The notes beneath the pieces are model-generated. The model did not search any database and was not told the DNA's origin. It saw nothing but the letters and a program-made list of their open reading frames with translations. A stretch of 64,000 nucleotides of DNA from a virus. Positions 6,154-40,903 of this stretch are shown piece by piece (within the stretch, counting starts at the first letter, position 1; the number at the start of each line of letters is the position of its first letter). The translations under genes and the position numbers were made by a program. The stretch lies in the IMG/VR virus record IMGVR_UViG_3300038760_000073, positions 1-64,000 of that record; one strand, written 5' to 3'.

Positions 6154-6198
6154 ATTATTATTTATGGTATTATATAAACATTTTTAATATAATATACC

Positions 6199-6233
6199 AA
6201 AAAAAAGCCTAACGGCCCGAAGGCCGTTAGGCT
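6199..6233 (-). terminator. Rho-independent terminator with CUUCGG tetraloop after gp23
   Basis: Minus strand reads AGCCTAACGGCC-TTCG-GGCCGTTAGGCT-TTTTTTT, a typical T4-type hairpin. Confidence 0.92.
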
Positions 6234-6252
6234 AAAGTTGTTAATTTCTATT

Positions 6253-7746
6253 TTAGAAATATACAGATTGACTACTAGGAGTAAATGCTGTACCGAGACC
6301 TTGAACAATAACAACATGGTAGTAGAGATTAGCACCAAAGATGTTATCAACTACGCCGTAACGGGTAAGCAACCCGACGCGTGGTGAGAAATCATTTGGA
6401 CCAATTGTTCTCTGAACCATGACTGGAATGTAAGGACAATAGATGATACCTGTATCATAAAACTCTGGACCCTTGTAACCAAGGAGAGCATATTCAACAC
6501 CGGTGGTTTTAGCACCACCAGGACCATTACCATACTTAGATGACTGATCATATGTACCTGCGTTGGCATAACCAACTTCAGTACGGGTATCACGGTAAAC
6601 ACTAAACCTACCACCAAGTGAACCAATCTTAGCAATACCAACAGGTTGCGTATTAACGTCACCTTGGACTTGTACCCACTGAAATTCAGGGAGCATTTCC
6701 AAGATAGCGCAAACACGTGGTGTAGCTACAACAAAGTTAGCAGCACCGCGCCTGTTACGTACAGCGATTCGATTGGCCTCAATGATTAGTTTCTGATAGA
6801 AATCACGATTACGTTCAACGAGCCAACGCCCATCAGCAGATGCAGGATGCCAGATAGAGTATCCAGCACCGGCGCCTGCGCCAAGAGCAGATTGAATCAT
6901 TCTCATGAGCATTTCACGGTCAATCTCAGCTTGGATCTCATATGACATAGCATTTGTGATCTCAGCATCGACGTCGATACCGTTCATGTTCTTGAGGTCT
7001 TGTTCTAGTTCAACAGACCAACGGGCGCCCAACCTACGGGTACCAGCTTCAACGGCTGTTTTCTCGAATTTAACTTCAACTTGCGGAATGTTACCTGTAA
7101 TCTCAAAGTTCTTGAGAATCTCAGCAACACCACCGTCTTGAGCAGCAAAATCCCAAACACCCGCCGCACCACTTAAAGCAGTGGAGGATGCACCAGTGAA
7201 CCTTGTGTCAAGCAGTTGATAACCAAGCTCATCGTTATAATCCGGAGCAACGTTATCAGCGTTACCGCCGTAGGTTCCTCCCGCATTCCAGTTCGAACCT
7301 TCACCGCCACCAGTTGCTCCACCATCAATACCACTACCGAGATCTGCACCTTGGTAGGAGTAACGTAGAGCAAAAGCTAGACCAACAGGACCGGACATGG
7401 GCTGAACACCAACAATATCGTTGGAGATGAGCTCAGGGAACGTACGTCGTATCATAGGGATAAGTACTTTTGGGAGACGAGCATCGCCTGAAGCATAATT
7501 ATCAGAGGAGTTGGGGGTATTGGGATTATAAAGCCCTCCACCACCTAGGGACCCATCCTGCCCGGCTGTGTTTCCTTCTTCAACACACCATTTCTCTTGA
7601 TTTTCAAGAAGAATTGCTGTGTTGAGACGGACTGTGTCGTCTTCAATAGACTTAACGCTATCAGATGAATAATCTAGAACAGGTGCCCATTTCTCTAAGA
7701 GAGTATCGGCTCTGTTCTTATCAATAAAAGATTGTGGTTTATTCAT
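6253..7746 (-). CDS. gp23: Major capsid protein (T4 gp23 family)
   Basis: LLEKWAPVL, TAILLENQ, GVQPMSGPVGLAFALR, WSVELEQDLK, YCPYIP motifs; start set at MNKPQ after SD-like GAAAGGA. Confidence 0.97.
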   Translation of the reverse strand: MNKPQSFIDKNRADTLLEKWAPVLDYSSDSVKSIEDDTVRLNTAILLENQEKWCVEEGNTAGQDGSLGGGGLYNPNTPNSSDNYASGDARLPKVLIPMIRRTFPELISNDIVGVQPMSGPVGLAFALRYSYQGADLGSGIDGGATGGGEGSNWNAGGTYGGNADNVAPDYNDELGYQLLDTRFTGASSTALSGAAGVWDFAAQDGGVAEILKNFEITGNIPQVEVKFEKTAVEAGTRRLGARWSVELEQDLKNMNGIDVDAEITNAMSYEIQAEIDREMLMRMIQSALGAGAGAGYSIWHPASADGRWLVERNRDFYQKLIIEANRIAVRNRRGAANFVVATPRVCAILEMLPEFQWVQVQGDVNTQPVGIAKIGSLGGRFSVYRDTRTEVGYANAGTYDQSSKYGNGPGGAKTTGVEYALLGYKGPEFYDTGIIYCPYIPVMVQRTIGPNDFSPRVGLLTRYGVVDNIFGANLYYHVVIVQGLGTAFTPSSQSVYF

Positions 7747-7837
7747 AATTTTTTGTTTCCTTTCTTTTTTTTCGACCTTCATGGAGTCATGCTCCAGGAT
7801 ATTCAGGCATTTAAATGCCTCATTGTTCAGTGAGAAA

Positions 7838-8686
7838 TTATTTCATTCGCTGTAGACCTTCTAGATACGGGTTTGCTACCTCTCTAGGCTGTTGAGGACT
7901 TAGTCGCTTAGGTACATCAGCTTTAACTTGTCGTTGTGAATAAGCCTCTTCTTTAATGACTTTCAGTCTTTCGCTTGATTTTTTATCAAACAATCTAGCT
8001 GTATAGTCGAAATTCTCTTCAATAAATTCAGGTGATTTATCATGTAAAATCTTGTGGAGATATTGAGCTTTCTTTTCTGGGAGACCTGATGTCCTAGTCT
8101 CTAGCAGTAGATCTGTTTTAGTCTTGTTATAAGCTTCTTTAATAATAACGTTTTCACGTTCAGCTTTTTCTAATTTATCAGATAGGTGAGTGATTTGCGC
8201 CTTCCCATCAACTACAGCGTCTTTAACTGACTCGCTCATCAACGATGAATCTACAGCTAATACTTTGCGGAGATTAGTAAGAACTTCCATAGCGGTCCGA
8301 TTTTGAGTTGCTTCTAAAATCTCTTTCTGTGGAATTGATTCATCAATATACTCTTCGAGATAGTTTGAAATCGATTCAACTAGTGTAGTTTTAAAATCCT
8401 TTGCAGATCCATGTAACTCTTTCTCATATCTGTTGATTACTTTGACTAATTTCTTAGAATTGCCAAGATCAACTGATTCCACAACCCGGTTGAGTTTCTG
8501 TGAATGATCTTTATCAATTGCGGAAACTAATTCATTGAGTTTTTTGGCATAAAGGTCGTCTTGTTCGGTAAGTGCTGCTTCAACAGAGAGTGATAATTTT
8601 TCTCTAATGGCGCTCTCAACAGATGCAATCGAATCTTCAGTCAAGACCTCTTTAACGCTTTCTGGTAGGATTGTTTTTCTAGTCAT
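7838..8686 (-). CDS. gp22: Prohead core scaffold protein
   Basis: Coiled-coil acidic protein between protease and capsid genes; LVESISNYLEEYIDE motif. Confidence 0.85.
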   Translation of the reverse strand: MTRKTILPESVKEVLTEDSIASVESAIREKLSLSVEAALTEQDDLYAKKLNELVSAIDKDHSQKLNRVVESVDLGNSKKLVKVINRYEKELHGSAKDFKTTLVESISNYLEEYIDESIPQKEILEATQNRTAMEVLTNLRKVLAVDSSLMSESVKDAVVDGKAQITHLSDKLEKAERENVIIKEAYNKTKTDLLLETRTSGLPEKKAQYLHKILHDKSPEFIEENFDYTARLFDKKSSERLKVIKEEAYSQRQVKADVPKRLSPQQPREVANPYLEGLQRMK

Positions 8687-8963
8687 TTTTAAAAAGTGGT
8701 TGTTCTGTTGCACCATTAACTCTATCTACTAATTTAGTTTCAACAGCGCTCTTTAAATATTTATGTGCACTAGCGTAATTTTTATCAGAAATTGCTGATA
8801 TAAAATGACTTAGTTTAGTATTCATAGAAACCTCTTCATCTTCTTCTCCGGTGATCTCTTCTTTCCCCGTTTTTCGAACCTTTTTATTGTGTTTCCGCTT
8901 TTGTTGCTTATTGGTATGTTTATTATAATCAACTTTTACGTTATCTTTTTTTGATCTAGGCAT
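8679..8963 (-). CDS. Small prohead core protein (gp67/68-like position)
   Basis: Charged 94-aa ORF in the head operon with TATAAATA upstream. Confidence 0.5.
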   Translation of the reverse strand: MPRSKKDNVKVDYNKHTNKQQKRKHNKKVRKTGKEEITGEEDEEVSMNTKLSHFISAISDKNYASAHKYLKSAVETKLVDRVNGATEQPLFKND

Positions 8964-8982
8964 ACTAAATTATATTTATACC

Positions 8983-9648
8983 TTAAAGGTTGTTTATGAA
9001 GGATAAAAACCGCTCTCTTAGATATTCATCTACACCTTTTTTAGGTAGGTTAGAAATACTCTCTTCAAATTTATCGTATATTTCCTCATACACCCCGTTT
9101 TCCGCTAAGACCCATTGTTTAGATTCTAATATACCATTAACAAACGCAGAGGAATATGAAGGATCAGCCACACAATCAATAGCAACCAACTTTAAATTGT
9201 TCACTTGATTATAATCTACCTTTTCTTCAAGGGTACCAAGTGCTCTTGAAGACATGCCAATTTTAACACCATCATTAATTAAGGATCGTACAACTTGGCC
9301 ACATGGAGTGGTTAGTACCTTAGACTTGCCATAAAATACATTACCATCTTGTGTAATTTCAGTAACTATATGGCATGCCCGTTCTAAATCTACATCAGCG
9401 GATGATGGGTGGTTGAGTTCTCCCATCGCGCGCCCGGGCTTAATCATCTCTTCATTATATCTCTGAACTTCACGTTCAAGCTCATTGAGTGGGTAATATC
9501 TATTATTCCTATTAACACCCTCTGCCATCATATATGGCCCCTTTATATACAGGTTAGATGGTGTATTTTTATTTGTCTCTTCTTCAATAATTTCAAACTG
9601 ATCCGCAATATCAGGATTTTCTACAACCAAATTTAGTTTTAGAGCCAT
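8983..9648 (-). CDS. gp21: Prohead core protease
   Basis: LYIKGPYMMAE, NRNNRYY, AMGELNHP, GMSSRALG, DCVADPS motifs. Confidence 0.96.
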   Translation of the reverse strand: MALKLNLVVENPDIADQFEIIEEETNKNTPSNLYIKGPYMMAEGVNRNNRYYPLNELEREVQRYNEEMIKPGRAMGELNHPSSADVDLERACHIVTEITQDGNVFYGKSKVLTTPCGQVVRSLINDGVKIGMSSRALGTLEEKVDYNQVNNLKLVAIDCVADPSYSSAFVNGILESKQWVLAENGVYEEIYDKFEESISNLPKKGVDEYLRERFLSFINNL

Positions 9649-9700
9649 ATATATGTATTTATACTATACTGCACATTTATTGCACTATAATATTATTTAA

Positions 9701-10027: not shown

Positions 10028-10039
10028 ATTATTATTTAT

Positions 10040-10474: not shown

Positions 10475-10495
10475 TCTATTAATAAGTAATTAAAA

Positions 10496-11650: not shown

Positions 11651-11691
11651 GAGTATATTTATTCAAATTTGTGTTATATACTGAATAATTA

Positions 11692-13476
11692 TTACTCTAT
11701 AGGCTCTACATCAACCGGCTCTTCATCTATTTCTAATTCAACATCTCCCTCTGCAGCTGGACCACCACCGAATTCAGGTATACCCTCCAAACCACCTCCA
11801 CCTCCTAGATCACCACCCATATCTTCACCTTCAGTAGCACCTAAATTACCTGCTGCTAGCTGCTCTTTCCATGCAGGGCCGGCTGCTTGAATTTGCGATA
11901 GCTCCCATTGCATCTCTGCATCTTTTCTAAGAAACTCTCTATTTGCAAGTATGTCTCTATCCTTCCATCCAAGATATTTCTTCTGCGCATATGTAGCGCT
12001 TACAAATTCATTTGATGCTAAGTTGTTAAAGTTAGTAGCTTTAAGTTCTAACCGCTGACTCTCTCTGAGTTCGAAAAAATTTGTAGGGACATTAAAAATT
12101 ATATCGAAATTTGTTTCACTAAGATCATACTTATCCCACATATTTCTTAATTTAAGGTGGGTAATAAATCCTTTCTTAATACCGGCAGCGAAACGTTGCT
12201 GCTGTCGTATAACAAATTTAGCAAATTTTAACTCTTCTCGTAACGTGGTTGATGTATCGACTGTGCGATCTTCTGGATCGATTCTGGTGGTGGGTACCTT
12301 TAATGCTTTATAAAGTTTCTTAATAAAATACATTAGATCGGCTAACTCGCCTAGGTTCGCACCACCTGGTAATTGTGTTACAGATGTACCTTCAGATCCT
12401 TGTCTTTTGGCGAACCAAAATGCATCAAGCATGGATTGAGGGTTAAACTTTTTAACCACGTCACTTTGATCCATATCAAATGTTTTTCTAGACCAGTAAT
12501 TTTGTATAAGCTTTCTAAGATACGCTTCGGCCTTTGGTGGTGCCATGTTACCGACATCAACATTGAACACCAATCGCTCCGGAGCGCGCACAAGTCTGTA
12601 AATAACAATAGCGTCCTCAATTAATGATAACTGTCGGAACGGTCTACGAGCGTTTTCTAAAAATGGTGTAACAAATTCTTTTGTTTCGTTATAAACACCT
12701 GAATTAATATATACGATTTGATTTGAATCCATAGGGATAAAATCATACCGTTCAACTTTATTTGGTTGAGTCTCACTAAAGATAGGTTTTTTGTAAATAT
12801 AACCTTTAACAAGCATATTTTGTATATTATTGTATACCGGGTCTATAAGCTCTGCCGGCAAATTTATCGACCCTAATACACCTTCATGAGTATATTCATC
12901 ATGCAAAATAAGCTCAAAAAATACTTCACCTTCAATTAAAAGCTGTCTAAAATACTGCCAACCTTTTTGTTTAAGGTCGAATAAATCTATAAACTTATAA
13001 AATTCATCTTCAACATTTTTTTTATCAGCAACATCTAAATCAATATTCTCAAAATTAATTTTAGCTATTTCACCTACATCATTTTCGTTAATAGTTTCGT
13101 CACATATTTCATCTAAAGCTTCAGCAACCTCCGAGTAAGCGGATATAATTCGATAGTCTCTAACACGACCAGTTTTATCCTCCTGCAGGTTTGCATACAT
13201 TATGTCTGCGAAGGACGAGTCCTTACCAAACTCACCGATCGCTACATTATTATAACTATTCGAAGATGAGACAGATGTTTTCGCTAAAGCTTCTGCGCGA
13301 CGACCTCCCGTTTTATTAAAATATTTATATTTGGGATTTAGACTATCATCATCCTTAACGGTGTTGGTATATGGCAGCCTGTTCTGTATATATTGAACTA
13401 GATTTCTACCGAATGTAGAAGATTTACCATCGTTACTCACGTAAGAACGATTTTGATTAGGAGATGTATCTGCCAT
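11692..13476 (-). CDS. gp20: Portal protein
   Basis: EDAIVIYRLVRAPERLVFNVDVGNM, LPGGANLGELADLMYF, REELKFAKFV motifs. Confidence 0.97.
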   Translation of the reverse strand: MADTSPNQNRSYVSNDGKSSTFGRNLVQYIQNRLPYTNTVKDDDSLNPKYKYFNKTGGRRAEALAKTSVSSSNSYNNVAIGEFGKDSSFADIMYANLQEDKTGRVRDYRIISAYSEVAEALDEICDETINENDVGEIAKINFENIDLDVADKKNVEDEFYKFIDLFDLKQKGWQYFRQLLIEGEVFFELILHDEYTHEGVLGSINLPAELIDPVYNNIQNMLVKGYIYKKPIFSETQPNKVERYDFIPMDSNQIVYINSGVYNETKEFVTPFLENARRPFRQLSLIEDAIVIYRLVRAPERLVFNVDVGNMAPPKAEAYLRKLIQNYWSRKTFDMDQSDVVKKFNPQSMLDAFWFAKRQGSEGTSVTQLPGGANLGELADLMYFIKKLYKALKVPTTRIDPEDRTVDTSTTLREELKFAKFVIRQQQRFAAGIKKGFITHLKLRNMWDKYDLSETNFDIIFNVPTNFFELRESQRLELKATNFNNLASNEFVSATYAQKKYLGWKDRDILANREFLRKDAEMQWELSQIQAAGPAWKEQLAAGNLGATEGEDMGGDLGGGGGLEGIPEFGGGPAAEGDVELEIDEEPVDVEPIE

Positions 13477-27230: not shown

Positions 27231-27422
27231 CTACTGCTTGTGCCTGTTTTCCATATTTGAATAATATTGCGGATCTTCAACGAGATGCTGCTTTGCTATA
27301 ATTTTAGCAATCGATTTATATGGTGTATGTTCTAGCTCAACTTGTATACCTTTAATTAACTCCTCAGGATCAAACTGTAGTGTATCATCTATAGGTTTAA
27401 AAAAATTCTTAAAAGCTCTCAT
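27231..27422 (-). CDS. DUF5661-like small protein
   Basis: KGIQVELEHT..AKIIAKQHLVEDPQYY motif; TATAAATA-N5-ATG. Confidence 0.7.
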   Translation of the reverse strand: MRAFKNFFKPIDDTLQFDPEELIKGIQVELEHTPYKSIAKIIAKQHLVEDPQYYSNMENRHKQ

Positions 27423-27427
27423 ATTTT

Positions 27428-27459
27428 TATTTATAAACGAAACAAATAGACTATAAATA
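27428..27459. promoter_or_regulatory. Back-to-back T4-type late promoters
   Basis: TATAAATA at 27452-27459 (+) and 27435-27428 (-), each exactly 5 nt before an ATG. Confidence 0.8.
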
Positions 27460-27464
27460 TTGTT

Positions 27465-29141: not shown

Positions 29142-29247
29142 AATGGTCTTACCTAATCAGGACTAGCACAAAATATTCCTGTTCTGCATGGTACCTTTGT
29201 ATTGACTAATGCATGCATCCGTAGTAACGTATTTGACACAAGTTATA

Positions 29248-29997: not shown

Positions 29998-30035
29998 ATT
30001 TTTAATTTGTTATATTATAATCTGGTACATTAAAT

Positions 30036-30806: not shown

Positions 30807-30911
30807 TATAGTAATATAATATATCAAATTGAATTTTCAACTATTTTTCTACTAAATTTTAATGTTAATATAATATAACTGAACGAATTTTTCGGTATAA
30901 ATATTATTATA

Positions 30912-31658
30912 TTGAGTAAAAAAACAACTTCTACAAGACGGGAAGGTGTTAACTTTGATAGTAAGGTTAATGACTTTGATGTGAGTATTGACAATAATTG
31001 GATGTTTGGCTTTAAATTAAAAAATCCATTTTACTTTAACGAGAAACATAGCCAATTTTATGAGTGTCTTAAGGATACATCGACAAAAATGGCGTTTGTT
31101 GATGGGCCGGCCGGTACCATGAAAACATATATAGCTGTTTATGCTGCGTTAGAAATGATATATGACGGTCTATTTGATAAGCTTATATATATAAGATCAA
31201 TTGCAGAATCAGCTCAAAAAAGCTTAGGATCTCTACCGGGAGAAGTTGATGATAAGTTCTCACCGTATGCAATGCCATTATTAGAGAAGGTTCAAGAAAT
31301 TACTAATAATAGTACGAGCAATATGCTTAGACAGAAAGGTATTATAGACGCTATCCCGGTAAATTTTGTACGTGGATTAACATTTAATAAATCTATTGTC
31401 ATTGTTGATGAGGCTCAAAATCTTACTATAGGTGAATTAACAACAATTCTTACAAGATTTGGTCGAAATAGTAAATATATTATCGCTGGAGACTGTCAAC
31501 AAGCTGATATCGGTAATAAATCCGGATTTAATACTATCTTTAATAAATTTAATAAAGCTGAAAGTGTTGAAAAGGATATACACTCTTTCAAATTTGGTAA
31601 TTCGGAAATTATGAGAAGTAAAATTCTAAAGTATATATGTGCCACATTAGGTGCATAA
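30912..31658 (+). CDS. phoH: PhoH-family ATPase
   Basis: GPAGTMKT, LGSLPG, RGLTF, DEAQN, GDCQQAD motifs. Confidence 0.93.
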   Translation: MSKKTTSTRREGVNFDSKVNDFDVSIDNNWMFGFKLKNPFYFNEKHSQFYECLKDTSTKMAFVDGPAGTMKTYIAVYAALEMIYDGLFDKLIYIRSIAESAQKSLGSLPGEVDDKFSPYAMPLLEKVQEITNNSTSNMLRQKGIIDAIPVNFVRGLTFNKSIVIVDEAQNLTIGELTTILTRFGRNSKYIIAGDCQQADIGNKSGFNTIFNKFNKAESVEKDIHSFKFGNSEIMRSKILKYICATLGA

Positions 31659-31680
31659 GGCTTTTAATATAAATAACTCT

Positions 31681-31821
31681 ATACAATCCCTACCAGATAA
31701 TCTTAGGGTGGGTGGTGATCTATATTTAAGGGAAACACCTATATCTAAAATATATTCAGCAGATGAGATAAAAGATATGGTTGAGTATGTAGGCGGTAGA
31801 GTTATCACCAACTATAATTGA
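31681..31821 (+). pseudogene. Single-unit leucine-rich-repeat-like mini-ORF or remnant (ATA start)
   Basis: Reads IQSLPDNLRVGGDLYLRETPISK..., 5 nt after TATAAATA (31668-31675). Confidence 0.55.
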
Positions 31822-31833
31822 CAACCATAAATA

Positions 31834-32277
31834 TTAGTTAGCGGCACGATATTTTGCCTTATCAATTTTTTGCTTGAGACCTTCCTCAACATCAATTAAT
31901 TGTTGAGCGGATATTTGAGCTGGAACGCGTTGAGGTTGTTGTATTACCGGGTTAATCGGAGATGGTGCCTCGGTATCGGTATTATTTGCATTAAAACGAT
32001 TTTCAAATATTGCCCCGTTTGTCTCTTCCGGTATATTTACCACCGGCAACGTTGCCGGTTCATTAAAATCCATATCAATTCTAACAACATCCGATTTAAC
32101 AATAGCTAATTGCTTTATCATCTCATCGATCTTTGCATCTTGCAATCTTAAGACAGAATTTATGTCATCAACTTTACTAGACTTTTGCCACATAACTGTA
32201 AAAAACCCCATTATAGGGGTAGCTAATATAATACCTAGTAACGTTGTAATTACGTTATTAATGTTAATTCTTTGCAT
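31834..32277 (-). CDS. Membrane-anchored hypothetical protein
   Basis: N-terminal TM helix plus coiled coil; late promoter. Confidence 0.65.
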   Translation of the reverse strand: MQRININNVITTLLGIILATPIMGFFTVMWQKSSKVDDINSVLRLQDAKIDEMIKQLAIVKSDVVRIDMDFNEPATLPVVNIPEETNGAIFENRFNANNTDTEAPSPINPVIQQPQRVPAQISAQQLIDVEEGLKQKIDKAKYRAAN

Positions 32278-32287
32278 ATATGCATAT

Positions 32288-32938
32288 TTATCCCCAAGTA
32301 GTGCCTTTAAACCAATCTGACTTACCTTGTGTAACGTTATTACCTACTGGGGCAGCTGCCGCGGCCGGGGCAGGATTACGGTTAGTTACTGATGACTCCG
32401 GTGATACGTTCGGTGCTTTTTCTGCAGATATATTATCTTGCACCCCCTCTGATCGCTGATCAGTATACTTATCCCAATCGATTAATTTACTAGTATTTTT
32501 TTCATATGTGGCTGAATTATCATCATGCTCAAATACTTCAACTTTATCAACCCAACACCTACCAGACGTCTCCTTATCTATTATAGGATCAACTAATTTA
32601 TAAATCCATTCAGCGGTTTTTTCGATTCCAACATTATCCATAACTCTAAGATCAATAATTCCACGAGATGATAATTCTTCAAATATATCCATCTCAGGAT
32701 CGTCGCTAGCGACACATGTTGTATGATCAAATTGCTTCTGCAATATCTTTCTAATTTCTTTAAATCCACCAAAATCATAAGACCAGGTCTTATCATCAAG
32801 ATTGCTGCAGCCTATAGTAAATTCTGCTACTAAATTATACCCATGTAATTTGCAGCAGTGGCTGTGAGTAGCTCGCCATTGCCTGAAAGCACATGACCCT
32901 AGTGTTATACGTTTCTTTGATGTATGCTTATGACTCAT
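32288..32938 (-). CDS. queD: 6-carboxytetrahydropterin synthase
   Basis: HSHCCKLHGY, DFGG, FDHT, VFEHDDNSA motifs; disordered C-terminal tail. Confidence 0.9.
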   Translation of the reverse strand: MSHKHTSKKRITLGSCAFRQWRATHSHCCKLHGYNLVAEFTIGCSNLDDKTWSYDFGGFKEIRKILQKQFDHTTCVASDDPEMDIFEELSSRGIIDLRVMDNVGIEKTAEWIYKLVDPIIDKETSGRCWVDKVEVFEHDDNSATYEKNTSKLIDWDKYTDQRSEGVQDNISAEKAPNVSPESSVTNRNPAPAAAAAPVGNNVTQGKSDWFKGTTWG

Positions 32939-33114
32939 AATATTATTATAATATCTATATATATCTAAATCAACTATAAATTTACCTAATCACAGATACG
33001 CTAGACGGTCAGTTAATTAGGTTTTTCTTACTACCTATAGTCCATTTATTAAGTCTAGATCCAATTGCAACTGTCGCGAGGGTACATTAATTTAGCCAAT
33101 TTTCAAAAATATCA

Positions 33115-33142
33115 TTGACTTATTAAAAATATACATTATCAT
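33115..33142 (+). promoter_or_regulatory. Sigma70-type promoter of folE
   Basis: TTGACT-N16-TATCAT-N6-ATG. Confidence 0.7.
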
Positions 33143-33148
33143 TATATA

Positions 33149-33805
33149 ATGAGTGATCAAACTGCAATATTACCAACAGCTAGTAGTTCTCATCCAAGAA
33201 CATATGAGGAAAAACAAATTATAATTAAAAATGCAGCTGCAGCTTACGAAAAATATTTAGATGCATTAGGTTTTGATTGGAGGAACGATCCTAACTCTGA
33301 TAATACACCTATGCGTGTTGCAAAGGCATTTGTTAATGATATTGCTGCGGGGTGTTATAGTGATCCTCCGGAGGTGACTGTATTTCCAAGTGATGGGTAT
33401 GATGGTATTGTAGCTCAGACAGGTATACCTATTGTGAGCCTATGCTCACATCATCATATGTCATTCACTGGTGTAGCTCATGTAGCTTATATTCCCTCTA
33501 TAGATGGTAAGGTCGTTGGCCTATCTAAGCTTAATAGAATTGTTGAGTATTATGCAAGACGACCACAAGTTCAGGAACTCTTAACCATGCAAGTATCAAA
33601 AGCAATTGATGACATATGTGAAAATAATAGAGGAACTGCCCTAGTCATTAAAGCTCAACATACATGTGCATGTAACAGGGGTATTAAGCATCAAGGATGT
33701 GCTATGGTAACTAGTAAGTTGACTGGTGACTTTATGGATGATAATAAAACTAGGACAGAATTTTATAAGTTTGTAGATATGTGGGAAGCTAGCGCAAATC
33801 GATAA
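33149..33805 (+). CDS. folE: GTP cyclohydrolase I
   Basis: TPMRVAK, SLCSHH, GLSKLNR, RPQVQE, HTCACNRG motifs. Confidence 0.95.
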   Translation: MSDQTAILPTASSSHPRTYEEKQIIIKNAAAAYEKYLDALGFDWRNDPNSDNTPMRVAKAFVNDIAAGCYSDPPEVTVFPSDGYDGIVAQTGIPIVSLCSHHHMSFTGVAHVAYIPSIDGKVVGLSKLNRIVEYYARRPQVQELLTMQVSKAIDDICENNRGTALVIKAQHTCACNRGIKHQGCAMVTSKLTGDFMDDNKTRTEFYKFVDMWEASANR

Positions 33806-33860
33806 CCCCCACGTAAATCGGCTGATTGTATACTAGAAGGAAATTATATATAATATAGTT

Positions 33861-34394
33861 ATGAATATATTTGTAACTGATAATGACCCGATTCAAGCTG
33901 CTAAGAACTTATGTGATCAGCACGTACGTAGTAAAATGCAAATTGAGGGAGCTATTATGTTGGCTCATGCATTTTCACAGGAAATTCTTAATGATCCATC
34001 AACACCTAGAACATCCACCGGGAATCCGAGAAAAAGGGGTAAAGGTTATTATAAGCATCAATGCTCTATATGGGCTAGAGAGTCTATAGATAACTTTAAA
34101 TGGCTAGCTGAGCATACTTTAGAAATGTTTACTGAGCGGATGTATAGGTGGCCTGATTCAAAGGAGCATTACACTAAAACATTTATTGAATGGTGTATAG
34201 ATAATATTGATAAGACATTAATTAAAGATATACCGCTAACATCCTATGCTGTCGCTATTAATGATGAATGTGAGTGTCGCAAGACCGTTAAAGCATTTAA
34301 CAGCTTATCAGTTATTGATCAATATAGACATTATATTAAACTAGATAAAAAATTCGCTACATGGACTAAGCGAGAAGCGCCTAGCTGGTTTTAG
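33861..34394 (+). CDS. denV: Pyrimidine dimer DNA glycosylase (endonuclease V-like)
   Basis: MNIFVTD..CDQHV..KM..E, HQCSIWARES, YRHY..K..ATW pattern. Confidence 0.8.
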   Translation: MNIFVTDNDPIQAAKNLCDQHVRSKMQIEGAIMLAHAFSQEILNDPSTPRTSTGNPRKRGKGYYKHQCSIWARESIDNFKWLAEHTLEMFTERMYRWPDSKEHYTKTFIEWCIDNIDKTLIKDIPLTSYAVAINDECECRKTVKAFNSLSVIDQYRHYIKLDKKFATWTKREAPSWF

Positions 34395-34831
34395 GCATCA
34401 ACCTCTAAATTATCACCAGCAATATTTTCTGCACTAACATCAATTAGTGCATCTAATTCCCGTTCAATAAACTGTTTTCCAACCAATATCTTATAAATAT
34501 TGGTAGATCTATTGCCAATAGAAAATGGCACATTTGAGAATAATTTATCACCAACTTTGACGTCAAACTCAACAACAGGTCGATGTTCAGTATTACCAGC
34601 ACCAACATTAATTGTTACCTCACCGGTTTTATCTTTCAATAGTGTCTTACCGTTAACAGTTCTAAAAAACACCTTAGAGCCCTGCTCTTGCAAGTCCTCT
34701 CCATGGAGAACATTGTAAGCACCGTTACCAGAATCAAGCTTTGCTGGTACTATACCAATACCCTCTATATCAAAGAACTCAATTAAGCCTAAGATTACCC
34801 TTTCTTCAAAATATTGTTTAAACTTTACCAT
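34391..34831 (-). CDS. Retropepsin-like protease (RimK-associated/RimB-like) with putative capsid-targeting N-terminus
   Basis: AKLDSGN, RPVV, NRS..ILVG motifs; N-terminus MVKFKQYFEE. Confidence 0.8.
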   Translation of the reverse strand: MVKFKQYFEERVILGLIEFFDIEGIGIVPAKLDSGNGAYNVLHGEDLQEQGSKVFFRTVNGKTLLKDKTGEVTINVGAGNTEHRPVVEFDVKVGDKLFSNVPFSIGNRSTNIYKILVGKQFIERELDALIDVSAENIAGDNLEVDA

Positions 34832-34842
34832 GGTAATTACTG

Positions 34843-35232
34843 TTAATAATTTTCTGAATCTTCACTATGGTTAGGTACATCCTTATTTTCATCGTAATCT
34901 AACCAATGATAAACGGATGATAAATAATCAGATGCTTTAGTAATTTTTGCTGCCGTCCACCCCTCTAAACTATTTGCTGATTTGAGCATATTTTCTAACT
35001 CACTAGCATACTCTATAGTTTTTTTAAGTTCGGATAATGCCATATGAATTTCAGAAGAATCATGCTCCTCATGAGAACATTTTTTATCACCACTATACTC
35101 TTGATCTGAATGTTGTTTATTATTATCTGTATTAATACCTACGACAATATCATCTTTAACCGGTATACCGACTTGAGTCATATATGCTTCTGAAAGTAAA
35201 TCTTTATCCTTACCCCAATTGTTATGCTGCAT
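34843..35232 (-). CDS. Putative internal head protein
   Basis: DLLSEAY; LEGWTAAKITKASDYLSSVYHWL motif; late promoter. Confidence 0.6.
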   Translation of the reverse strand: MQHNNWGKDKDLLSEAYMTQVGIPVKDDIVVGINTDNNKQHSDQEYSGDKKCSHEEHDSSEIHMALSELKKTIEYASELENMLKSANSLEGWTAAKITKASDYLSSVYHWLDYDENKDVPNHSEDSENY

Positions 35233-35326
35233 AACAATATTTATGCTAAATTATAATACTCTCATACCTTTTAGCACTTTAGGTATTATTAATTAAGAAT
35301 AACACTCTACCACCCTACCACTTCTA

Positions 35327-35719
35327 TCACCAAGATTTGCAAGCCCAGTAACCTGCTGTCAACTTACTCTTTTTTTGATCACACTTATGTCTAGCTCTAA
35401 ATGATTTACGAGCTTTAGGATTACTCTTGCGTATTTTCATCGTCTTTTCACCCCGCTTTTTTGCAGATGTACCACCGTGACCAAAATTGACTTTCTTTAC
35501 ATTCCCAGTCTTTGGATCTTTAACATATACCTTAAACTTCTTAACATCTCCCCTGGTAGGCTTATTTAAGGTAACCTTGCGCCCCTGATACTCAGCATCC
35601 TCTTCCGGTAATCCACGACCAGGGAAATCTAACGACTCTGCCATATTTTGAATACCTATTTCAGAAATATCATCTGTTGTTGTTTCTAGTTGCTCAAAAT
35701 ATTCTTTAAAGGTTTTCAT
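35327..35719 (-). CDS. Conserved T4-like phage basic protein (DUF6321-like), putative internal head protein
   Basis: KKFKVYVKDP..VNFG..RKSFRARHKC..GYWAC; N-terminus MKTFKEYFEQ. Confidence 0.75.
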   Translation of the reverse strand: MKTFKEYFEQLETTTDDISEIGIQNMAESLDFPGRGLPEEDAEYQGRKVTLNKPTRGDVKKFKVYVKDPKTGNVKKVNFGHGGTSAKKRGEKTMKIRKSNPKARKSFRARHKCDQKKSKLTAGYWACKSW

Positions 35720-35778
35720 ATGTATTTTAACTATTGCTTAAATTGTTTTATAGTAACTACTATAAACTAAGAATATGG

Positions 35779-36087
35779 TCAAGCACCCTCGCCATCCTCG
35801 GCACCGGTATTAAACATACTATTACCTTGACCGGTCGTACCTGCCCCTAATTTACTAAGTACATCTGCTAATTGTGCTATTAATTCTGCAGCACGTGCTT
35901 GTAAATCACCTGATTGATCTAGATCATCACAGCAACATTCATCACAATTACCACATGTGCAGCTTTGAGGCTCTTGCGAACAACCACCAGCTATACCGGT
36001 ATCGATCTCAGTTACAGCTAATTCTGTAGGAGCAATGCTCTGCATATATGTTTCAGCAATTAAATCCATAGTGGGGTTGTTCTTCAT
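35779..36087 (-). CDS. Cys-rich hypothetical protein
   Basis: Start at MKNNP after TAAATA-N5; CTCGNCDECCC cluster. Confidence 0.6.
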   Translation of the reverse strand: MKNNPTMDLIAETYMQSIAPTELAVTEIDTGIAGGCSQEPQSCTCGNCDECCCDDLDQSGDLQARAAELIAQLADVLSKLGAGTTGQGNSMFNTGAEDGEGA

Positions 36088-36091
36088 AATG

Positions 36092-36640
36092 TTATTTATT
36101 GATAATAATCGATTTAACTGCTTCTTTATCTGTCTCAGACATGTCATCCGGTGTAAAATAGCTAATAGCCTCGTCAATATCACTATTAATGAGATGTCTA
36201 GTCTTAGTTCCGGATATACCTTCTGATTGAATTGGTATTTTTGCGATATTTACTAGTGGATATTTTTCAATATTTTTATTAAAACCATCATATCGCTTAA
36301 TATCTTCATCTTTAGCACCAGCACCAACAATAATACCGGTATGTTTATTATTATATGCAAATGCATATACAGATCTAACAGGGCTAACAGCTGATATATG
36401 AGTCTCGATAGGCTTTCCTAGGTATTTTGAGTATATTTCCCATATAGCCTTTGATTGTTCGGCTGTAATACCATCTCTTTCCTTCTTACCAATAAAAATA
36501 ATGCCTTTATCTGCACTATCTAAAATATATTTGAAGGCTTTAAAGTGTCCCTTAGTTGGTGGTTTAAAGCCACCGGGGAATAATGCAATATTCTCTGCTG
36601 GTCCCTGAACTTGTTCAAAATACTGTTTAAAATTTTTCAT
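36092..36640 (-). CDS. HxGH-family (cytidylyltransferase-like) nucleotidyltransferase
   Basis: PGGFKPPTKGH and ISGTKTR motifs; N-terminus MKNFKQYFEQ. Confidence 0.82.
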   Translation of the reverse strand: MKNFKQYFEQVQGPAENIALFPGGFKPPTKGHFKAFKYILDSADKGIIFIGKKERDGITAEQSKAIWEIYSKYLGKPIETHISAVSPVRSVYAFAYNNKHTGIIVGAGAKDEDIKRYDGFNKNIEKYPLVNIAKIPIQSEGISGTKTRHLINSDIDEAISYFTPDDMSETDKEAVKSIIINK

Positions 36641-37860
36641 TACTTAGTTATTGGTGTACTGGTTTGGCCTCCGGAGAAGTTTGCTCTACTAAACTCGAGT
36701 CTATCTACTAGCTTAACAGCGTTACCATCTCTACTGATGCTAACATATCCTTCAGGCGCAGTAACCTTAAGCGTCCCATCACCAGCATCTAGAAAATGCT
36801 TTGTTTTATATACTGCATTATTATATTTGTTAATAAATATCTGTTTTGCTTGTGAGATTAACTTACTAACCTTAAACACATTTACTATATCTTGTTCATT
36901 ACTCTCTATCTCTGAGAGTTTTTTCTTAAAACTCTCTTTAACTCGCTCTTTACCTTTAATACTCTTTCGTTTATCTATTTCCTTAGACATTCTATTTTTA
37001 ATCCATAGAACAAAATTTGCATATGATTCATCAGCATTTTCTAAAAATTTACCACCTTTAATCTCAGAATTTGTATATATATTGAGTAAATCTAGGGGAA
37101 GATCTTTATATTTAACTTTAATTGAGTCAGCAGTCTTAACATAATCCTTTACCTGCTTGACTTCATCAGTTGTTAATGTAACAACCCCTGTATCATCTTT
37201 AAAAAATGCATCATCTACCCACACACCAGGTACCTTGTTAAGTTTATTAACTTTAGCTCCAAAATTAGCTCCACTTTCTAGATCATTGTATTCAGTATGA
37301 AAAATAATGCCAAATACTGAACTACTAATAGATTTACCTAGATCTGAATCCGCTTCCACTGCATATTTTATAGTATTTGGCTTAAATGTATAGTGCATCA
37401 CCCCATCAATATTTTCTTTTGCTAATGTTGATGAATCAAACATAAAATCACCCTGTAGTATGTTTTTAATACCAAGTTTGGGTAGGTATTTGAGAGCCTT
37501 CTTAAGTTTATCTGCTAGACCAGGTGCATGTCCATGATTTAACTCAACATCATTATCAGTATAGTTAATTTTGGGGTCTCTATTAAAAATAGATTTGGTA
37601 CCTACAAAAAATTTACCTGTATCTGGGTGCCTCCCTACAAACATTGCGGGCGCGCCATCCCACTTAACTGTGGTACCAACCTTTCGTTTACTTTTGCCTT
37701 GTAAGTGTGATAGTAGGTCTGTTATAAAGCCTCTAGCTGTTGTGTATCCTTGCTCTCCCTTAGTTAGAACAAGTTCTTCCAGGTGGGTTAAGTGTGTGTT
37801 AGCTTTAGTTGCCTCCTCAATGAGCTTGTAAGCTTCAAAATATTGTTTATATGTTTTCAT
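36640..37860 (-). CDS. DUF6267-like protein with RNA-ligase-type nucleotidyltransferase motifs
   Basis: NTHLTHLEE, TVKWDG (motif I), QGDF, EGYV, VKLVDRLEFS; N-terminus MKTYKQYFEA. Confidence 0.75.
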   Translation of the reverse strand: MKTYKQYFEAYKLIEEATKANTHLTHLEELVLTKGEQGYTTARGFITDLLSHLQGKSKRKVGTTVKWDGAPAMFVGRHPDTGKFFVGTKSIFNRDPKINYTDNDVELNHGHAPGLADKLKKALKYLPKLGIKNILQGDFMFDSSTLAKENIDGVMHYTFKPNTIKYAVEADSDLGKSISSSVFGIIFHTEYNDLESGANFGAKVNKLNKVPGVWVDDAFFKDDTGVVTLTTDEVKQVKDYVKTADSIKVKYKDLPLDLLNIYTNSEIKGGKFLENADESYANFVLWIKNRMSKEIDKRKSIKGKERVKESFKKKLSEIESNEQDIVNVFKVSKLISQAKQIFINKYNNAVYKTKHFLDAGDGTLKVTAPEGYVSISRDGNAVKLVDRLEFSRANFSGGQTSTPITK

Positions 37861-39035
37861 TAGTTGATTAGTTTCATTCCACCCACTTCTTTTGCAGCAC
37901 CTGAGGCTGTTGTGCTACTACCAGGAAAGTACCCATAAACACCGTCACCGTCTATTCTAAATTTAATTAACTCTTGATCAATAGCTTGATTAATAATTTC
38001 TTGACTCTTTACATTGATGTAATTAGCTTTACTCCATGTACCCTCAGCAAACCTAGCAGGTCCTGTTCCGGATGCTTTCATACCATGCTGATATACTCCT
38101 AACCATATATCAAACTTATGGCCCCCTTCACCCATATTTTCATCATCTGGTGAACCGTTTCCATAAGCGTGCAGTAAACGACCACACATATGCTGTATTC
38201 GTACATTAATACCCGGGTATTTATTAACGATTTCTTCTAAGACTGTCCTTGTTAGACCTTTCTTACAAAAATCACTGCTCCAAGTACTTGTATTAATACC
38301 ATCGAGAGTATAACTATCATCCTCTGCTTCACCTGCTTTCAACCCACCATAATTCGCTATTTGTTCAATTTTTACTCTATCATCAGCAAATCCCCTACCA
38401 CGCGCACTTATAATCCTACCTAGACCTGTTTTTAATTCTATACTAGTATTACCTATCTGTAAATCACCAACGCTACCCTTTTTAGCTTCAGTTAAAAGAG
38501 CTAAAGCTAATTCTCCATTACCGACACTTACGTTACCTTCTTTAAAATCTCGCGCCCAAAGCATGTTATAAAACTTTAAATGATCTTCTACCGGCAAAAA
38601 CATCTCAAGCTGAGGCTTACATATACTATATAATTCCATACTACCTACCTTAGTAGTAAATTCAGGTAACAATACATTAAGGTTGTCTTTTTTATCAACC
38701 AGCTCTCTTAATCCGTCGTAATTAGCATTATTAAACTCTTGAAATAATAGTTTTAAGAACCGATCTTCTGTTTCAAAACCACTCTTTTCTGCTAGTTTTT
38801 GAATAATTTTATAATCCTCTTTAAGTATAAAGGATCCTTCAGCCTTACCTTGTAAATAATCAGCTACTCTAAATGCTGTCTTATCACTTATACCTTCAAG
38901 TGTTTGAGGTTTACCCTCATCATACTCAAAAGTAATCTTTGCTTCCCCATATACGCTTAAATGTCCACGTGGAGGTACTTCTTTACCTCTCACCTGATCA
39001 TATAAACTTGCTAAAGATCTTCTACTATAATTCAT
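37860..39035 (-). CDS. Hypothetical protein with PD-(D/E)xK nuclease-like motif
   Basis: GNGELAL...GDLQIGNTSIELKT. Confidence 0.55.
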   Translation of the reverse strand: MNYSRRSLASLYDQVRGKEVPPRGHLSVYGEAKITFEYDEGKPQTLEGISDKTAFRVADYLQGKAEGSFILKEDYKIIQKLAEKSGFETEDRFLKLLFQEFNNANYDGLRELVDKKDNLNVLLPEFTTKVGSMELYSICKPQLEMFLPVEDHLKFYNMLWARDFKEGNVSVGNGELALALLTEAKKGSVGDLQIGNTSIELKTGLGRIISARGRGFADDRVKIEQIANYGGLKAGEAEDDSYTLDGINTSTWSSDFCKKGLTRTVLEEIVNKYPGINVRIQHMCGRLLHAYGNGSPDDENMGEGGHKFDIWLGVYQHGMKASGTGPARFAEGTWSKANYINVKSQEIINQAIDQELIKFRIDGDGVYGYFPGSSTTASGAAKEVGGMKLIN

Positions 39036-39367
39036 GATCCAATATCTGTAATTTTATCTAGTTCTCTTTGTGTGTCAACAGGACTGATCTCTAAAAAGTT
39101 CTCAATAGTCTCAATAACTTCTTTTGGTTTATCATTTAATATTAATGACTGCAGCTCATTTACAATTTTACTCTCACTATCATCTGGTATATGTAAGAAT
39201 GCCTTGACAGCTAAATTAATTAAGAATTTTTCACCCTCTGATGTTAATGGTATAGGTGTCTCAGGGACAGGCTGTTCACTAATATCCGTAGCATCAGGCA
39301 TGTCTGGAGCTCCATCCTGTTCATTAATCTGTTTTAAATACTGTGTAATTAACTTGAGTGTTTTCAT
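39032..39367 (-). CDS. Hypothetical acidic protein
   Basis: Coupled ORF in the late operon. Confidence 0.65.
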   Translation of the reverse strand: MKTLKLITQYLKQINEQDGAPDMPDATDISEQPVPETPIPLTSEGEKFLINLAVKAFLHIPDDSESKIVNELQSLILNDKPKEVIETIENFLEISPVDTQRELDKITDIGS

Positions 39368-39705
39368 ATTTCAATCTTCTTTGCGGCTTTAACGAGTTTA
39401 TCTGCTAACTGTCTTTTAGCACTCTGAACTTTCCTTGCTGTTGAGCTCATCACCTGCTTACCTAGTTTTTGATCGGGTATAGACAAAACAGCTGCAGCTG
39501 TTTCTACTGTTTTGTCTATATCAGATTCTTGCTCTTCTTCTGGATGAACAGAGTTTTTAAGCTTACTAAATATATCCCACGCAAATTCAGTACCACTTAC
39601 ATCAACGCTATCGATAACCTCGCCGGTTGCTGTTTGTAATACAATACTATAATTACCCCGTTCTGGATTATTTTCCTCAACTAATTCGAGAAATTTACTA
39701 CTCAT
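39364..39705 (-). CDS. Hypothetical protein
   Basis: First gene after the late promoter at 39712-39717; N-terminus SKFLELVEE. Confidence 0.65.
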   Translation of the reverse strand: MSSKFLELVEENNPERGNYSIVLQTATGEVIDSVDVSGTEFAWDIFSKLKNSVHPEEEQESDIDKTVETAAAVLSIPDQKLGKQVMSSTARKVQSAKRQLADKLVKAAKKIEI

Positions 39706-39714
39706 GTATAATAT

Positions 39715-40185
39715 TTATGGTAGTAGAGATCGTTTTATGTTTATATTGCTTTTAAATTTTTTCTCTAACGCCTGTAACTTGTATCTACGAAGTAAATTAA
39801 AAAATCTCTGAAAGTTGGCAGTTGAAATATCCGTATCGTTAAAAGCAATATAGTCTCGCTCTGTCAAAAAATTCTCAAACTCATACACATCATATGTAAT
39901 ATTTGATGGTAAAGTATTAAAAATCCGCTTTACCAATCTTGACTCAATACTATCTGTGGTCTTGTAGTAAAACCACTTTTTAGAACCTACCTTAGAGCAT
40001 ACATTTAACAATTGGTTAATAATAAAATGTAATCCTAACTTATTTTTATCCGCTCTAGATAAGGTCAATTCATTCTCAGTTATATATAAAATATATTCTT
40101 TAAAAGAATTATTTAAATAGTGGTTAAGATTTATAAACGTAATATCCCTCTTTTGATCCTTAAAGTTGCTTACAGATAAGCTCAT
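39715..40185 (-). CDS. Hypothetical protein
   Basis: 156-aa ORF with no recognised motif. Confidence 0.6.
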   Translation of the reverse strand: MSLSVSNFKDQKRDITFINLNHYLNNSFKEYILYITENELTLSRADKNKLGLHFIINQLLNVCSKVGSKKWFYYKTTDSIESRLVKRIFNTLPSNITYDVYEFENFLTERDYIAFNDTDISTANFQRFFNLLRRYKLQALEKKFKSNINIKRSLLP

Positions 40186-40197
40186 ATTATATACTGA

Positions 40198-40623
40198 TTA
40201 TATAGATTTTCCTTTACCTATACGACAGTTTATTATACCATTATAGTACTCTTCCTTTAAGAGTACTTCCTCAGCGAATTGTATTTTCGCTTCTTCGTAA
40301 CTTAATTGCCATTTTGAATCACAAAATTTGATAATTTCAAACTTAAAGTTTTGTTTTCCCAACTCAATAATATCTATATTAAGCTTATTTGATGACGAAG
40401 TATACTCACGCCAATCTGTCTCTTTAATTGTATGCCTTTTATTTTTCTTTCCTTTGAGAGGAGGTCGTTTAAGTGTAGTTATGCATTGTTTCTTACCAAT
40501 ATATTTCTTACCAGACTGTAAGTTTGTTATTTTATATATAAATCCGAACGGTACTATACTATCTTCACATATAATATCTGATTCCCAATGACCAAAATCA
40601 ATTTGATTGCTCTTTATCGTCAT
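40198..40623 (-). CDS. GIY-YIG endonuclease
   Basis: GFIYKITN..KYIGKK..YTSS..E..YYNG pattern. Confidence 0.85.
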   Translation of the reverse strand: MTIKSNQIDFGHWESDIICEDSIVPFGFIYKITNLQSGKKYIGKKQCITTLKRPPLKGKKNKRHTIKETDWREYTSSSNKLNIDIIELGKQNFKFEIIKFCDSKWQLSYEEAKIQFAEEVLLKEEYYNGIINCRIGKGKSI

Positions 40624-40903
40624 GATTTGCTAGCACTACTGCTTTTTTTTTCTGTACACCTCGTAACTTTTTTACCTTCTTCTTTTTGTTTTTCTCTGTC
40701 TCTGTACTTAAGTCGGCGCGGCGCTGTATGCCACCCAATACTTTAGGATTTCTGGCATCTCCAGGAGCGTATGAGTCAGATGAATTAATATTACCATCCG
40801 GGTCAAACCCACCTGCAGAGCCACCTACAGTATTACTAGTAACCATATCTTCATGTAAATAGTATAAAAATATATGTTCAAATTTACTACTTGATTTTGA
40901 CAT
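40598..40903 (-). CDS. Hypothetical protein with basic tail
   Basis: TATAAATA-N5-ATG; DSYAPGDARNPK resembles gp23 DNYASGDARLPK. Confidence 0.6.
   Translation of the reverse strand: MSKSSSKFEHIFLYYLHEDMVTSNTVGGSAGGFDPDGNINSSDSYAPGDARNPKVLGGIQRRADLSTETEKNKKKKVKKLRGVQKKKAVVLANHDDKEQSN

Follow-up and report, generated by a model that had tools for sequence, protein, structure and literature searches.

Why should neighbouring genes for unrelated proteins open with nearly the same ten residues? The question is raised by a gene cluster on the minus strand of the IMG/VR virus record IMGVR_UViG_3300038760_000073. The stretch analyzed here, termed the window, is 64,000 nucleotides (nt) long and takes up the first 64 kb of one virus contig of 76,845 bp. 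Within it, MVKFKQYFEE opens an open reading frame (ORF) of 146 amino acids (aa) at 34391-34831, MKTFKEYFEQ one of 130 aa at 35327-35719, MKNFKQYFEQ one of 182 aa at 36092-36640 and MKTYKQYFEA one of 406 aa at 36640-37860, all on the minus strand. The common N-terminus of these four genes, which lie within 34391-37860, is M-[KV]-x-[FY]-K-x-Y-F-E. A preliminary description of this DNA had reported four clustered proteins with near-identical decapeptide starts, and both the ORFs and their N-termini were found exactly as given there. We consider it likely that the shared decapeptide is a capsid-targeting propeptide of the type known from phage T4, here carried by enzyme cargo.

When ORFs of at least 40 aa were read from all start codons of the 76,845-bp contig, the motif ^M..[FYW][KQ].[FY][FIL] was matched only by these four and by a fifth tag-like start, MRAFKNFFKP, which opens a 63-aa ORF at 27231-27422 (minus strand). 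The resemblance of MRAFKNFF at 27422 to the tag, also pointed out earlier, was thus recovered by the same search. A closely related test motif had five N-terminal and no internal matches among the 92 called proteins (23,824 aa). As only about 0.004 N-terminal matches were expected (Poisson P ~7e-15), a chance or compositional origin of the tag was ruled out. Pairwise BLASTP of the five tagged proteins without their first 12 residues gave no significant pair, the best being the basic 130-aa protein against the protease-like 146-aa protein (E 0.011); the five appear to be mutually unrelated beyond residue 12.

The capsid-targeting tag of T4 is found on small inhibitor proteins that disarm restriction enzymes. 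The T4 leaders, read from NC_000866, are MKTFKEFTSTTTPVSTITEA (MKTFKEFTS...) for IPI and MKTYQEFIAEA for IPII and IPIII. The window tag MKTFKEYFEQ is identical to IPI in six of the first seven residues, and MKTYKQYFEA is identical to IPII and IPIII in the first four. According to a review of T4 head assembly (PMC9026906, which covers Mullaney and Black, 1996), no more than the first ten residues of IPIII are required for incorporation into the head. In this capsid-targeting sequence (CTS) residues 4 and 7 are reported to be the main determinants of targeting, and residues 8 and 10 those of processing. Both the CTS and the variable set of Ip proteins in T-even phages are well established (PMC9026906; PMC12373910). 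The window tags have F or Y at residue 4 and Y or F at residue 7, as at the T4 targeting positions. At residues 8 to 10 the T4 leaders of IPII and IPIII read I-A-E. The window tags have F8-E9-x there, and the one tag that has E10 is MVKFKQYFEE of the protease-like protein. Since the decapeptide is nearly identical to the T4 head-loading tag and stands on four unrelated proteins, the window phage probably packs the tagged proteins in its capsid and injects them with its DNA.

The contig is a fragment of a T4-like marine myophage with its nearest named relatives in the Kyanoviridae. A search with the gene of the 406-aa protein, a member of family DUF6267, returned Pelagibacter phage HTVC008M (39% identity), Methylophilales phage Melnitz and hundreds of cyanomyophages. 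The presumed processing enzyme is a gp21-type prohead protease at 8983..9648 (PF03420, E 1e-33, 9118-9567; phrog_207, E 1.6e-56), which is 37% identical to T4 gp21. It is encoded on the minus strand, as are a gp23-type major capsid protein at 6253..7782 (phrog_138, E 8.7e-82; BLASTP to T4 gp23, E 1e-38) and a gp20-type portal protein at 11692..13476 (phrog_213, E 1.2e-98). A probable gp22-type scaffold (7838..8716, minus strand) was assigned from its position between the protease and capsid genes and its many [LIV]xE sites, and had no sequence match to T4 gp22 or PHROGs. In an alignment of the capsid protein to T4 gp23 the gp21 cut site could be placed only approximately, near ...CVEEGNTAGQ....

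The T4 internal-protein system and the one proposed here have several features in common, namely a peptide of about ten residues at the N-terminus of otherwise unrelated proteins (MKTFKEF and MKTYQEFIAE in T4, MKTFKEYFEQ and MKTYKQYFEA in the window), aromatic residues 4 and 7, Glu at 9 or 10 or [LI]-x-E shortly after, a gp21-type protease, a T4-type head, late-type promoters (in the window, late-promoter-like boxes) and a cargo set that varies among relatives. They differ in that the T4 cargo consists of inhibitors of 8-21 kDa, while that of the window is mostly enzyme-sized and enzyme-like (a 45-kDa ligase-like protein, an adenylyltransferase and a protease-like protein), and in that the tagged genes of the window lie in one overlap-coupled operon. 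The window phage is, unlike T4, an uncultured marine relative of the pelagimyophages. A second proposed likeness is to Alt and the head enzymes of giant phages, which are likewise enzymes that travel inside the head, are cut by the prohead protease and reach the host together with the DNA. T4 Alt is reported to be processed at both termini (PMC9026906), and the head-packaged ejection proteins of SPN3US and phiKZ-like phages (PMC5694885) have other propeptides. In the literature searched, the tag was described neither for marine T4-like phages, cyanophages and pelagimyophages included, nor for natural enzyme cargo, and DUF6267 was not mentioned.

Conservation and modularity of the leader

We collected 92 distinct copies of the tag from the window phage and its relatives by a pattern requiring aromatic residues at positions 4 and 7. 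All of these motif-selected copies have Y or F at residue 7, and at residue 4 all have F except one, which has Y. Homologues of the 182-aa protein, a putative adenylyltransferase, were not selected by motif, and 109 of 120 were tagged, with F/Y at residue 4 and Y/F at residue 7. The 120 closest DUF6267 homologues mostly begin M-x-x-F-K-x-[YF]-[YFH]. The codons of the tag swap synonymously or conservatively (AAA/AAG/AGA, TAT/TAC, GAA/GAG, and TTT/TTC in the ratio 65:27 at codon 8), and the 40 nt 5' of the tags are close to unconserved, with 0.0-0.5 bits per position. Selection on the tag acts at the protein level. The transferase counts, together with the synonymous codon changes, bear out that the motif is conserved in homologues, a point which the preliminary description had left to be checked. 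A conserved DNA cassette as the source of the tag was ruled out by the variable tag DNA and the unconserved flanks.

These codon data bear on the idea that the tag is an expression element rather than a protein signal: about ten A/T-rich, unstructured opening codons would raise initiation on late mRNAs that are coupled or nearly leaderless. Although the codons are very A/T-rich (ATG AAA ACA TTT AAA GAA TAT TTT GAA) and codon 4 is TTT in 90 of the 92 copies, it is the amino acids that are conserved over the bases, with K/R by way of AAA/AGA, Y/F exchanges and both Phe codons at position 8. In distant relatives the aromatic residues 4 and 7 and the L-x-E are retained but encoded by quite different codons. 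The late boxes lie just 4-7 nt from the ATG, so that leaders would be very short, as this explanation would have it; yet gp23, gp21 and the portal gene are late genes without the tag, and the cyanophage orthologues of the tagged genes lack it too. We regard an expression element as very unlikely.

Still less credible is a functionless tag, either a recombination scar or short repeat shuffling genes in a hyperplastic region or a chance Lys/Phe-rich start. The flanking DNA is unconserved, the tag DNA itself is variable, and the repeat always begins exactly at the ATG and in frame. The statistics given above, without a single internal match, also speak against it. The differing cluster content among relatives and the few isolated matches in unrelated small phages would suit such an origin.

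In large relatives the tag keeps to one genomic neighbourhood. Each of three large contigs from related phages had two to three copies of the exact tag DNA pattern, all of them within the syntenic cluster, and the controls gave no match. In a 197-kb relative (93% complete) the relaxed motif was found in only 3 of 243 called proteins, all in the syntenic cluster, and these are the orthologues of DUF6267, the transferase and the protease-like protein. The tag was restricted to the cluster in both the window contig and the 197-kb relative, so the concern raised earlier that the motif might be equally common in early genes did not materialize.

A pattern scan of IMG/VR gave 91 stretches, which with few exceptions lie at ORF starts. 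When these are pooled with the loci collected earlier, the tag is seen on about 20 unrelated body families, some of them very small proteins. The scan also gave a small background of short or internal matches, some of them in phages of 36-38 kb without gp21. One 138,655-bp IMG/VR contig (G004; loci L111, L140 and L165) encodes three paralogues starting MKDFKTYFE[SA] and an unrelated protein starting MKSFKQYFEE; no gp21 match was found in this contig, which is 67% complete.

Among the 771 genes of 74 DUF6267 loci that are more distant, 45 open with the T4 architecture, against eight Met-anchored internal matches. Their products comprise P-loop kinases (MKSFRDFIFE...GGPGSGKST), a transferase that begins MKTYQRFMTE, the basic protein and several of no recognized kind. 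Adenylate-kinase-like P-loop proteins (GGPGSGKST) with T4-architecture leaders were seen directly after DUF6267 at L201 4801, L206 2954, L247 1244, L238 7182, L249 5362 and L205 3818. As tagged kinases directly follow DUF6267, a set of ligase-like protein, transferase and kinase is suggested for the distant phages. In the cultured Stenotrophomonas phage DLP_6, DUF6267 begins MMKFTQFLAE followed by SK, and in Melnitz the transferase starts MKKFSEIIEA and a 361-aa protein MQGFKTFLSEA.

The leader behaves as a module. Fusions of the transferase with the basic domain (L003 and L049, where the basic domain comes second, and Melnitz) have a single N-terminal tag, the basic domain being without a tag of its own, and fusions of DUF6267 with the transferase (P0115, P0118 and P0120) likewise carry one tag, at the N-terminus only. 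Homologous basic proteins have either MKSFKYYFFE or MQFDELVKQILE before the same AKEAPKGKHY body, which looks like a natural leader swap ending at the same Glu. A second leader class, M[EKQ]F[DN][DEN]LV..[LI]LE, was seen at the head of basic-protein homologues of related phages (L024 2803-3237, L031 3290-3754, L038 3919-4386, L066 2188-2910 and others); the L024 leader stops at the Glu-Ala junction where the MKxFK tag of L005 also stops. Cyanophage DUF6267 orthologues have no leader, that of S-PM2 starting MATQNKHLEHLE and that of P-HM2 MSKNTHLEHLE, and in BLAST residue 21 of the window DUF6267 aligns with cyanophage residues 4-5. The P-HM2 transferase similarly begins at its first strand, without a leader. 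These untagged cyanophage orthologues are annotated as hypothetical proteins and adjoin a labelled virion protein, a hint that they may be absent from virions. In the AlphaFold models of DUF6267 and the transferase the leader is a low-confidence helix apart from the fold.

We surveyed the leader boundary in the 150 best DUF6267 representatives at 50% identity, in 107 of which the conserved domain starts within the first 80 residues. The full T4 architecture (aromatic 4 and 7, hydrophobic 8, Glu 10) was present in 27 of the 107, e.g., MISFKQYLRE followed by AK and MDNFKTFISE followed by AK. Four more have it offset by one residue, 18 have aromatic 4 and 7 only, and eight have no extension. An [LIVMF]-x-E site within 12 aa before the domain was found in 94 of the 98 representatives with an extension of at least 9 aa, against 13% of random windows from the same proteins, all of these being related sequences. 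This boundary site lies outside the Pfam model and is missing in the leaderless cyanophage forms. In the window DUF6267 it reads K-L-I-E-E16, followed by ATKANTHL, and the window transferase has a conserved E12 after its tag.

The modular leader could also be read as a docking or assembly peptide for a target other than the prohead, such as a cytoplasmic multi-enzyme complex or a shared operon partner (the 113-, 111- or 391-aa protein). DUF6267 and its nucleotidyltransferase partner are functionally linked and fused in both orders in other phages, the genes are overlap-coupled, and the leaders are predicted to be free amphipathic helices, all of which would fit. A docking peptide is nevertheless hard to reconcile with the same tag on about 20 unrelated bodies, very small proteins included, or with its near-identity to the experimentally defined capsid signal of T4. 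The protease-type [LIV]-x-E sites after the tag across the family and the cyanophage versions of the enzyme pair, which do without it, also argue against docking, and we think it unlikely. The alternatives discussed here are less probable than capsid targeting and fit less of the evidence.

The tagged proteins

The largest tagged protein is the 406-aa DUF6267 protein with a KWDG motif (36640..37860, minus strand; PF19782, E 8.5e-96). Its leader, MKTYKQYFEAYKLIEE, is followed by ATKANTHL, and its tag codons (MKTYKQYFEA) were placed at 37831..37860 on the minus strand from the ORF reading and the comparison of tag-copy codons. The AF2 model has a mean pLDDT of 90, with residues 1-20 of low confidence. 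In an alignment of 69 sequences the invariant residues are K66, D68, G69, D138 (QGD), E370, G371 (EGYV) and K383 (VKLVD), which follow the order of ligase motifs I, III, IV and V. The top long matches in VIA-align were all ATP-dependent RNA ligases, with Z 7.2-8.2 over 177-210 residues (5cot 8.2, 5d1o 7.7, Trl1 7.6, T4 Rnl1 7.3 and Rnl2 7.2), a Z range that can be fortuitous, and Foldseek against the PDB gave no significant match (best E 0.1). Because the Z scores are middling and the Foldseek result is not significant, we call the protein RNA-ligase-like only; it is a putative covalent nucleotidyltransferase and is not claimed as a ligase.

DUF6267 shares with the ATP-dependent RNA ligases (Naegleria NgrRnl/Rnl5 5cot, archaeal Rnl3 5d1o, fungal Trl1 and T4 Rnl1/Rnl2) the KxDG lysine, QGD, EG[YF]V and VKLVD in ligase order. 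It differs from them by a large helical insertion at about 230-350, by having no recognizable OB or C-terminal ligase domain and by being always paired or fused with a HIGH-family adenylyltransferase. Fusions of the two occur in both orders and reach about 1,066 aa (P0115, P0118 and P0120; P0121, P0123, P0125, P0126 and P0129-P0131), and DUF6267 and the adenylyltransferase therefore probably act together. Some of the fusions with the transferase at the N-terminus begin MSLSEWLVES or MNLGEWLVEQ.

The partner in the window is a 182-aa HIGH-family (TKGH) adenylyltransferase (36092..36640, minus strand) with the leader MKNFKQYFEQVQGPAEN ahead of its first strand; its tag codons (MKNFKQYFEQ) were placed at 36611..36640 (minus strand) in the same way as those of DUF6267. 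The AF2 model has a mean pLDDT of 90, and 54 in the leader helix. Foldseek matched it to PPAT/CoaD (E 1.3e-6, TM 0.60-0.67), with NMNAT next. TKGH at residues 29-32 is near-invariant. The 182-aa protein had no Pfam match at E 0.01, and PF01467 was found in the transferase halves of the DUF6267 fusions P0115 and P0120. It shares with CoaD and NMN adenylyltransferases a Rossmann-like HIGH-family fold with (T/H)xGH and ISGT-type motifs, and differs from them by an identity of only about 15-20% and by its N-terminal leader.

The 146-aa protein tagged MVKFKQYFEE (34391..34831, minus strand) is retropepsin-like, with a DSG motif. Its PF05618 'Zn_protease' match (E 1.6e-4, 22.1 bits) is below the cut-off of 27, and PDB chain 9g58_A matched residues 66-139 with E 9.4e-6. 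Its relatives begin MKKFKQFF[IAV]EK, and all 24 collected were tagged, the collection having favoured tagged genes. The basic 130-aa protein tagged MKTFKEYFEQ (35327..35719, minus strand) belongs to phrog_7595, which has no known function. Over 95 nt (35482-35576) its gene is about 75% identical in DNA sequence to the podovirus Pelagibacter phage HTVC111P, so that the basic domain also circulates in phages that are not T4-like. The 63-aa protein with the tag-like MRAFKNFF (27231..27422, minus strand) is a DUF5661 protein by its Pfam match and has an TATAAATA box. The enzyme labels proposed beforehand were broadly right: DUF6267 is ligase-like, the protein described as HxGH is PPAT/NMNAT-like and the 146-aa protein is retropepsin-like.

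Operon layout and neighbouring genes

The six genes from 39705 to 36087 are closely coupled, with successive overlaps of 4, 4, 1 and 1 nt and then a 4-nt gap. A late-promoter-like box, CATAAATA, is located at 39712..39719 (minus strand), 6 nt 5' of the ATG at 39705 of the first gene, and a second CATAAATA at 35238..35245 (minus strand), 5 nt 5' of the ATG at 35232 of a 129-aa gene. It had been proposed that the genes from 39705 to 36092 are translationally coupled behind one late promoter. The overlaps and the box at 39705 bear this out. With the second box before 35232 added, the tagged cluster has at least two late-type starts (39705 and 35232). The DUF5661 gene has its own TATAAATA box 5 nt upstream of the ATG at 27422, and the basic-protein gene (ATG 35719) has no clear late box of its own. 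Sigma-70-type promoters and terminators within the cluster were found at chance level only.

The NATAAATA box is a T4-type late-promoter motif. It was found 4-15 nt 5' of the ATG in 19 of 92 genes, including those of gp21, the portal and tail proteins, and ATAAATA was found within 20 nt 5' of the ATG in 16 of 92 genes, including the gp21 and portal genes, against 0.5 expected. The arrangement in the cluster is as for the gp21 and portal genes and would fit late timing. Many of the NATAAATA boxes are only 4-7 nt from the start codon, with no Shine-Dalgarno visible (5737-13476 and 27422-40903). With boxes so close to the ATG and no visible Shine-Dalgarno, late mRNAs of the window phage may be nearly leaderless.

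Several untagged neighbours, all on the minus strand, have starts that resemble a leader. The first gene of the operon encodes a 113-aa protein (39364..39705) with the N-terminus MSSKFLELVEEN; its relatives begin MSKFLKLVEEN, with a leader-like L-V-E site. The 111-aa acidic protein (39032..39367), which overlaps the upstream gene by 4 nt, has the N-terminus MKTLKLITQYLKQINEQ, and its relatives begin MKTLKLIEQYKxLLEQD. A 102-aa acidic Cys-rich protein (35779..36087, probable ATG 36087) starts MKNNPTMDLIAE followed by TYMQS and has an I-A-E site, and a 129-aa acidic protein (34843..35232) starts MQHNNWGKDKDLLSE followed by AYMT, its family keeping an L-x-E-A-Y site. The 129-aa and 102-aa proteins are paralogues with a basic N-terminus that ends in L-x-E followed by A/T-Y, and they carry ...DL[LI]xE before AY; this N-terminus may be a third type of propeptide. 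HTVC008M (MTRYTKTMAEAY) and Melnitz (MTRYNKTMSEAL) encode longer proteins with N-termini similar to those of the paralogues (loci L001 12540 and L097 9764), and the long HTVC008M protein is a BLASTP homologue of the 129-aa protein.

The untagged 391-aa protein (37860..39035, minus strand) is overlap-coupled on both sides. It had no Pfam or PHROG match, and its family profile had no match in HTVC008M or Melnitz. Its GD...ELK motif, with ten residues between GD and ELK, resembles the PD-(D/E)xK nuclease motif; a feature-based Atlas lead to restriction-endonuclease-like clusters scored 0.80, no better than chance. A 141-aa ORF at 40198-40623 (minus strand), immediately upstream of the cluster, has a GIY-YIG-like start, FGFIYKITNLQSGKKYIGK, and may be a homing endonuclease at the border of a variable region.

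A possible route into the head

If the decapeptide works as in T4, the operon would be transcribed late in infection from gp55-type late promoters. The N-terminal amphipathic helix, with an aromatic face formed by residues 4, 7 and 8, would then dock the proteins on the prohead scaffolding core, and the gp21-type protease would cut after a nearby Glu, the candidates being E9/E10, E12 in the transferase and L-I-E-E16 in DUF6267. The mature proteins would thereby be freed within the head and exit along with the DNA when the next cell is infected. The cargo would comprise DUF6267, its partner adenylyltransferase, the retropepsin-like protein and the basic protein, and probably other leader-bearing products of the operon.

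Several points weigh against this proposal. For the window phage and its tagged relatives packaging, cleavage and injection are all read from sequence, and a folded enzyme of 45 kDa exceeds the size of the natural internal proteins of T4. The tag has F8-E9 in place of the I/L8-x-E10 of T4, which makes its cleavage uncertain, and with this non-canonical site the exact cut sites in the window proteins are uncertain as well. The sequences behind the conservation counts are related, so that the counts do not represent independent events. Starts of the form MKxFKxYFE also turn up, in small number, in phage genomes of 36-38 kb without a gp21 match, and these are probably background. Applied to the T4 genome, the tag pattern found ipII, ipIII and also gene 61.1, which begins MKTFKEFIKE, lies in an early-gene neighbourhood and has no head-protein annotation. 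Gene 61.1 is a 54-aa hypothetical ORF adjoining the primase gene (NC_000866 18966-19130; locus L259 667-831, minus strand), and its start has the CTS architecture in full. As it carries the motif without a head annotation, the motif alone is no proof of packaging, and the gene is either an overlooked head protein or a warning on inference from the motif only.

Capsid targeting, as put forward in the preliminary description, is nonetheless where the T4-like leaders, the gp21 protease and head module, the late boxes, the conservation, the confinement to the cluster and the modularity all agree at the level of sequence. We place less confidence in injection than in the propeptide itself, and less again in any particular function of the cargo. 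The kit might serve at entry to seal or repair nucleic-acid ends or to supply a nucleotide cofactor, which is a guess.

The proposal may extend beyond the window phage. Abundant marine T4-like phages and soil relatives such as DLP_6 would load a conserved enzyme kit by means of the tag and inject it with their DNA, the kit consisting of the RNA-ligase-like DUF6267, its adenylyltransferase partner and, in relatives, also P-loop kinases; taken together, we judge the case for this to be about evenly balanced. If true, the repair or sealing of nucleic-acid ends, or nucleotide-cofactor chemistry, would be under way ahead of all phage gene expression, and aromatic 4, aromatic 7, hydrophobic 8 and Glu 9/10 would constitute a sequence rule for predicting which proteins uncultured T4-like phages inject. 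If the tag works as in T4, a biological setting would be gained for DUF6267, whose thousands of sequences have no assigned function, and for its fused partner. In that case some of the most abundant myophages of the ocean would deliver whole enzymes at infection.

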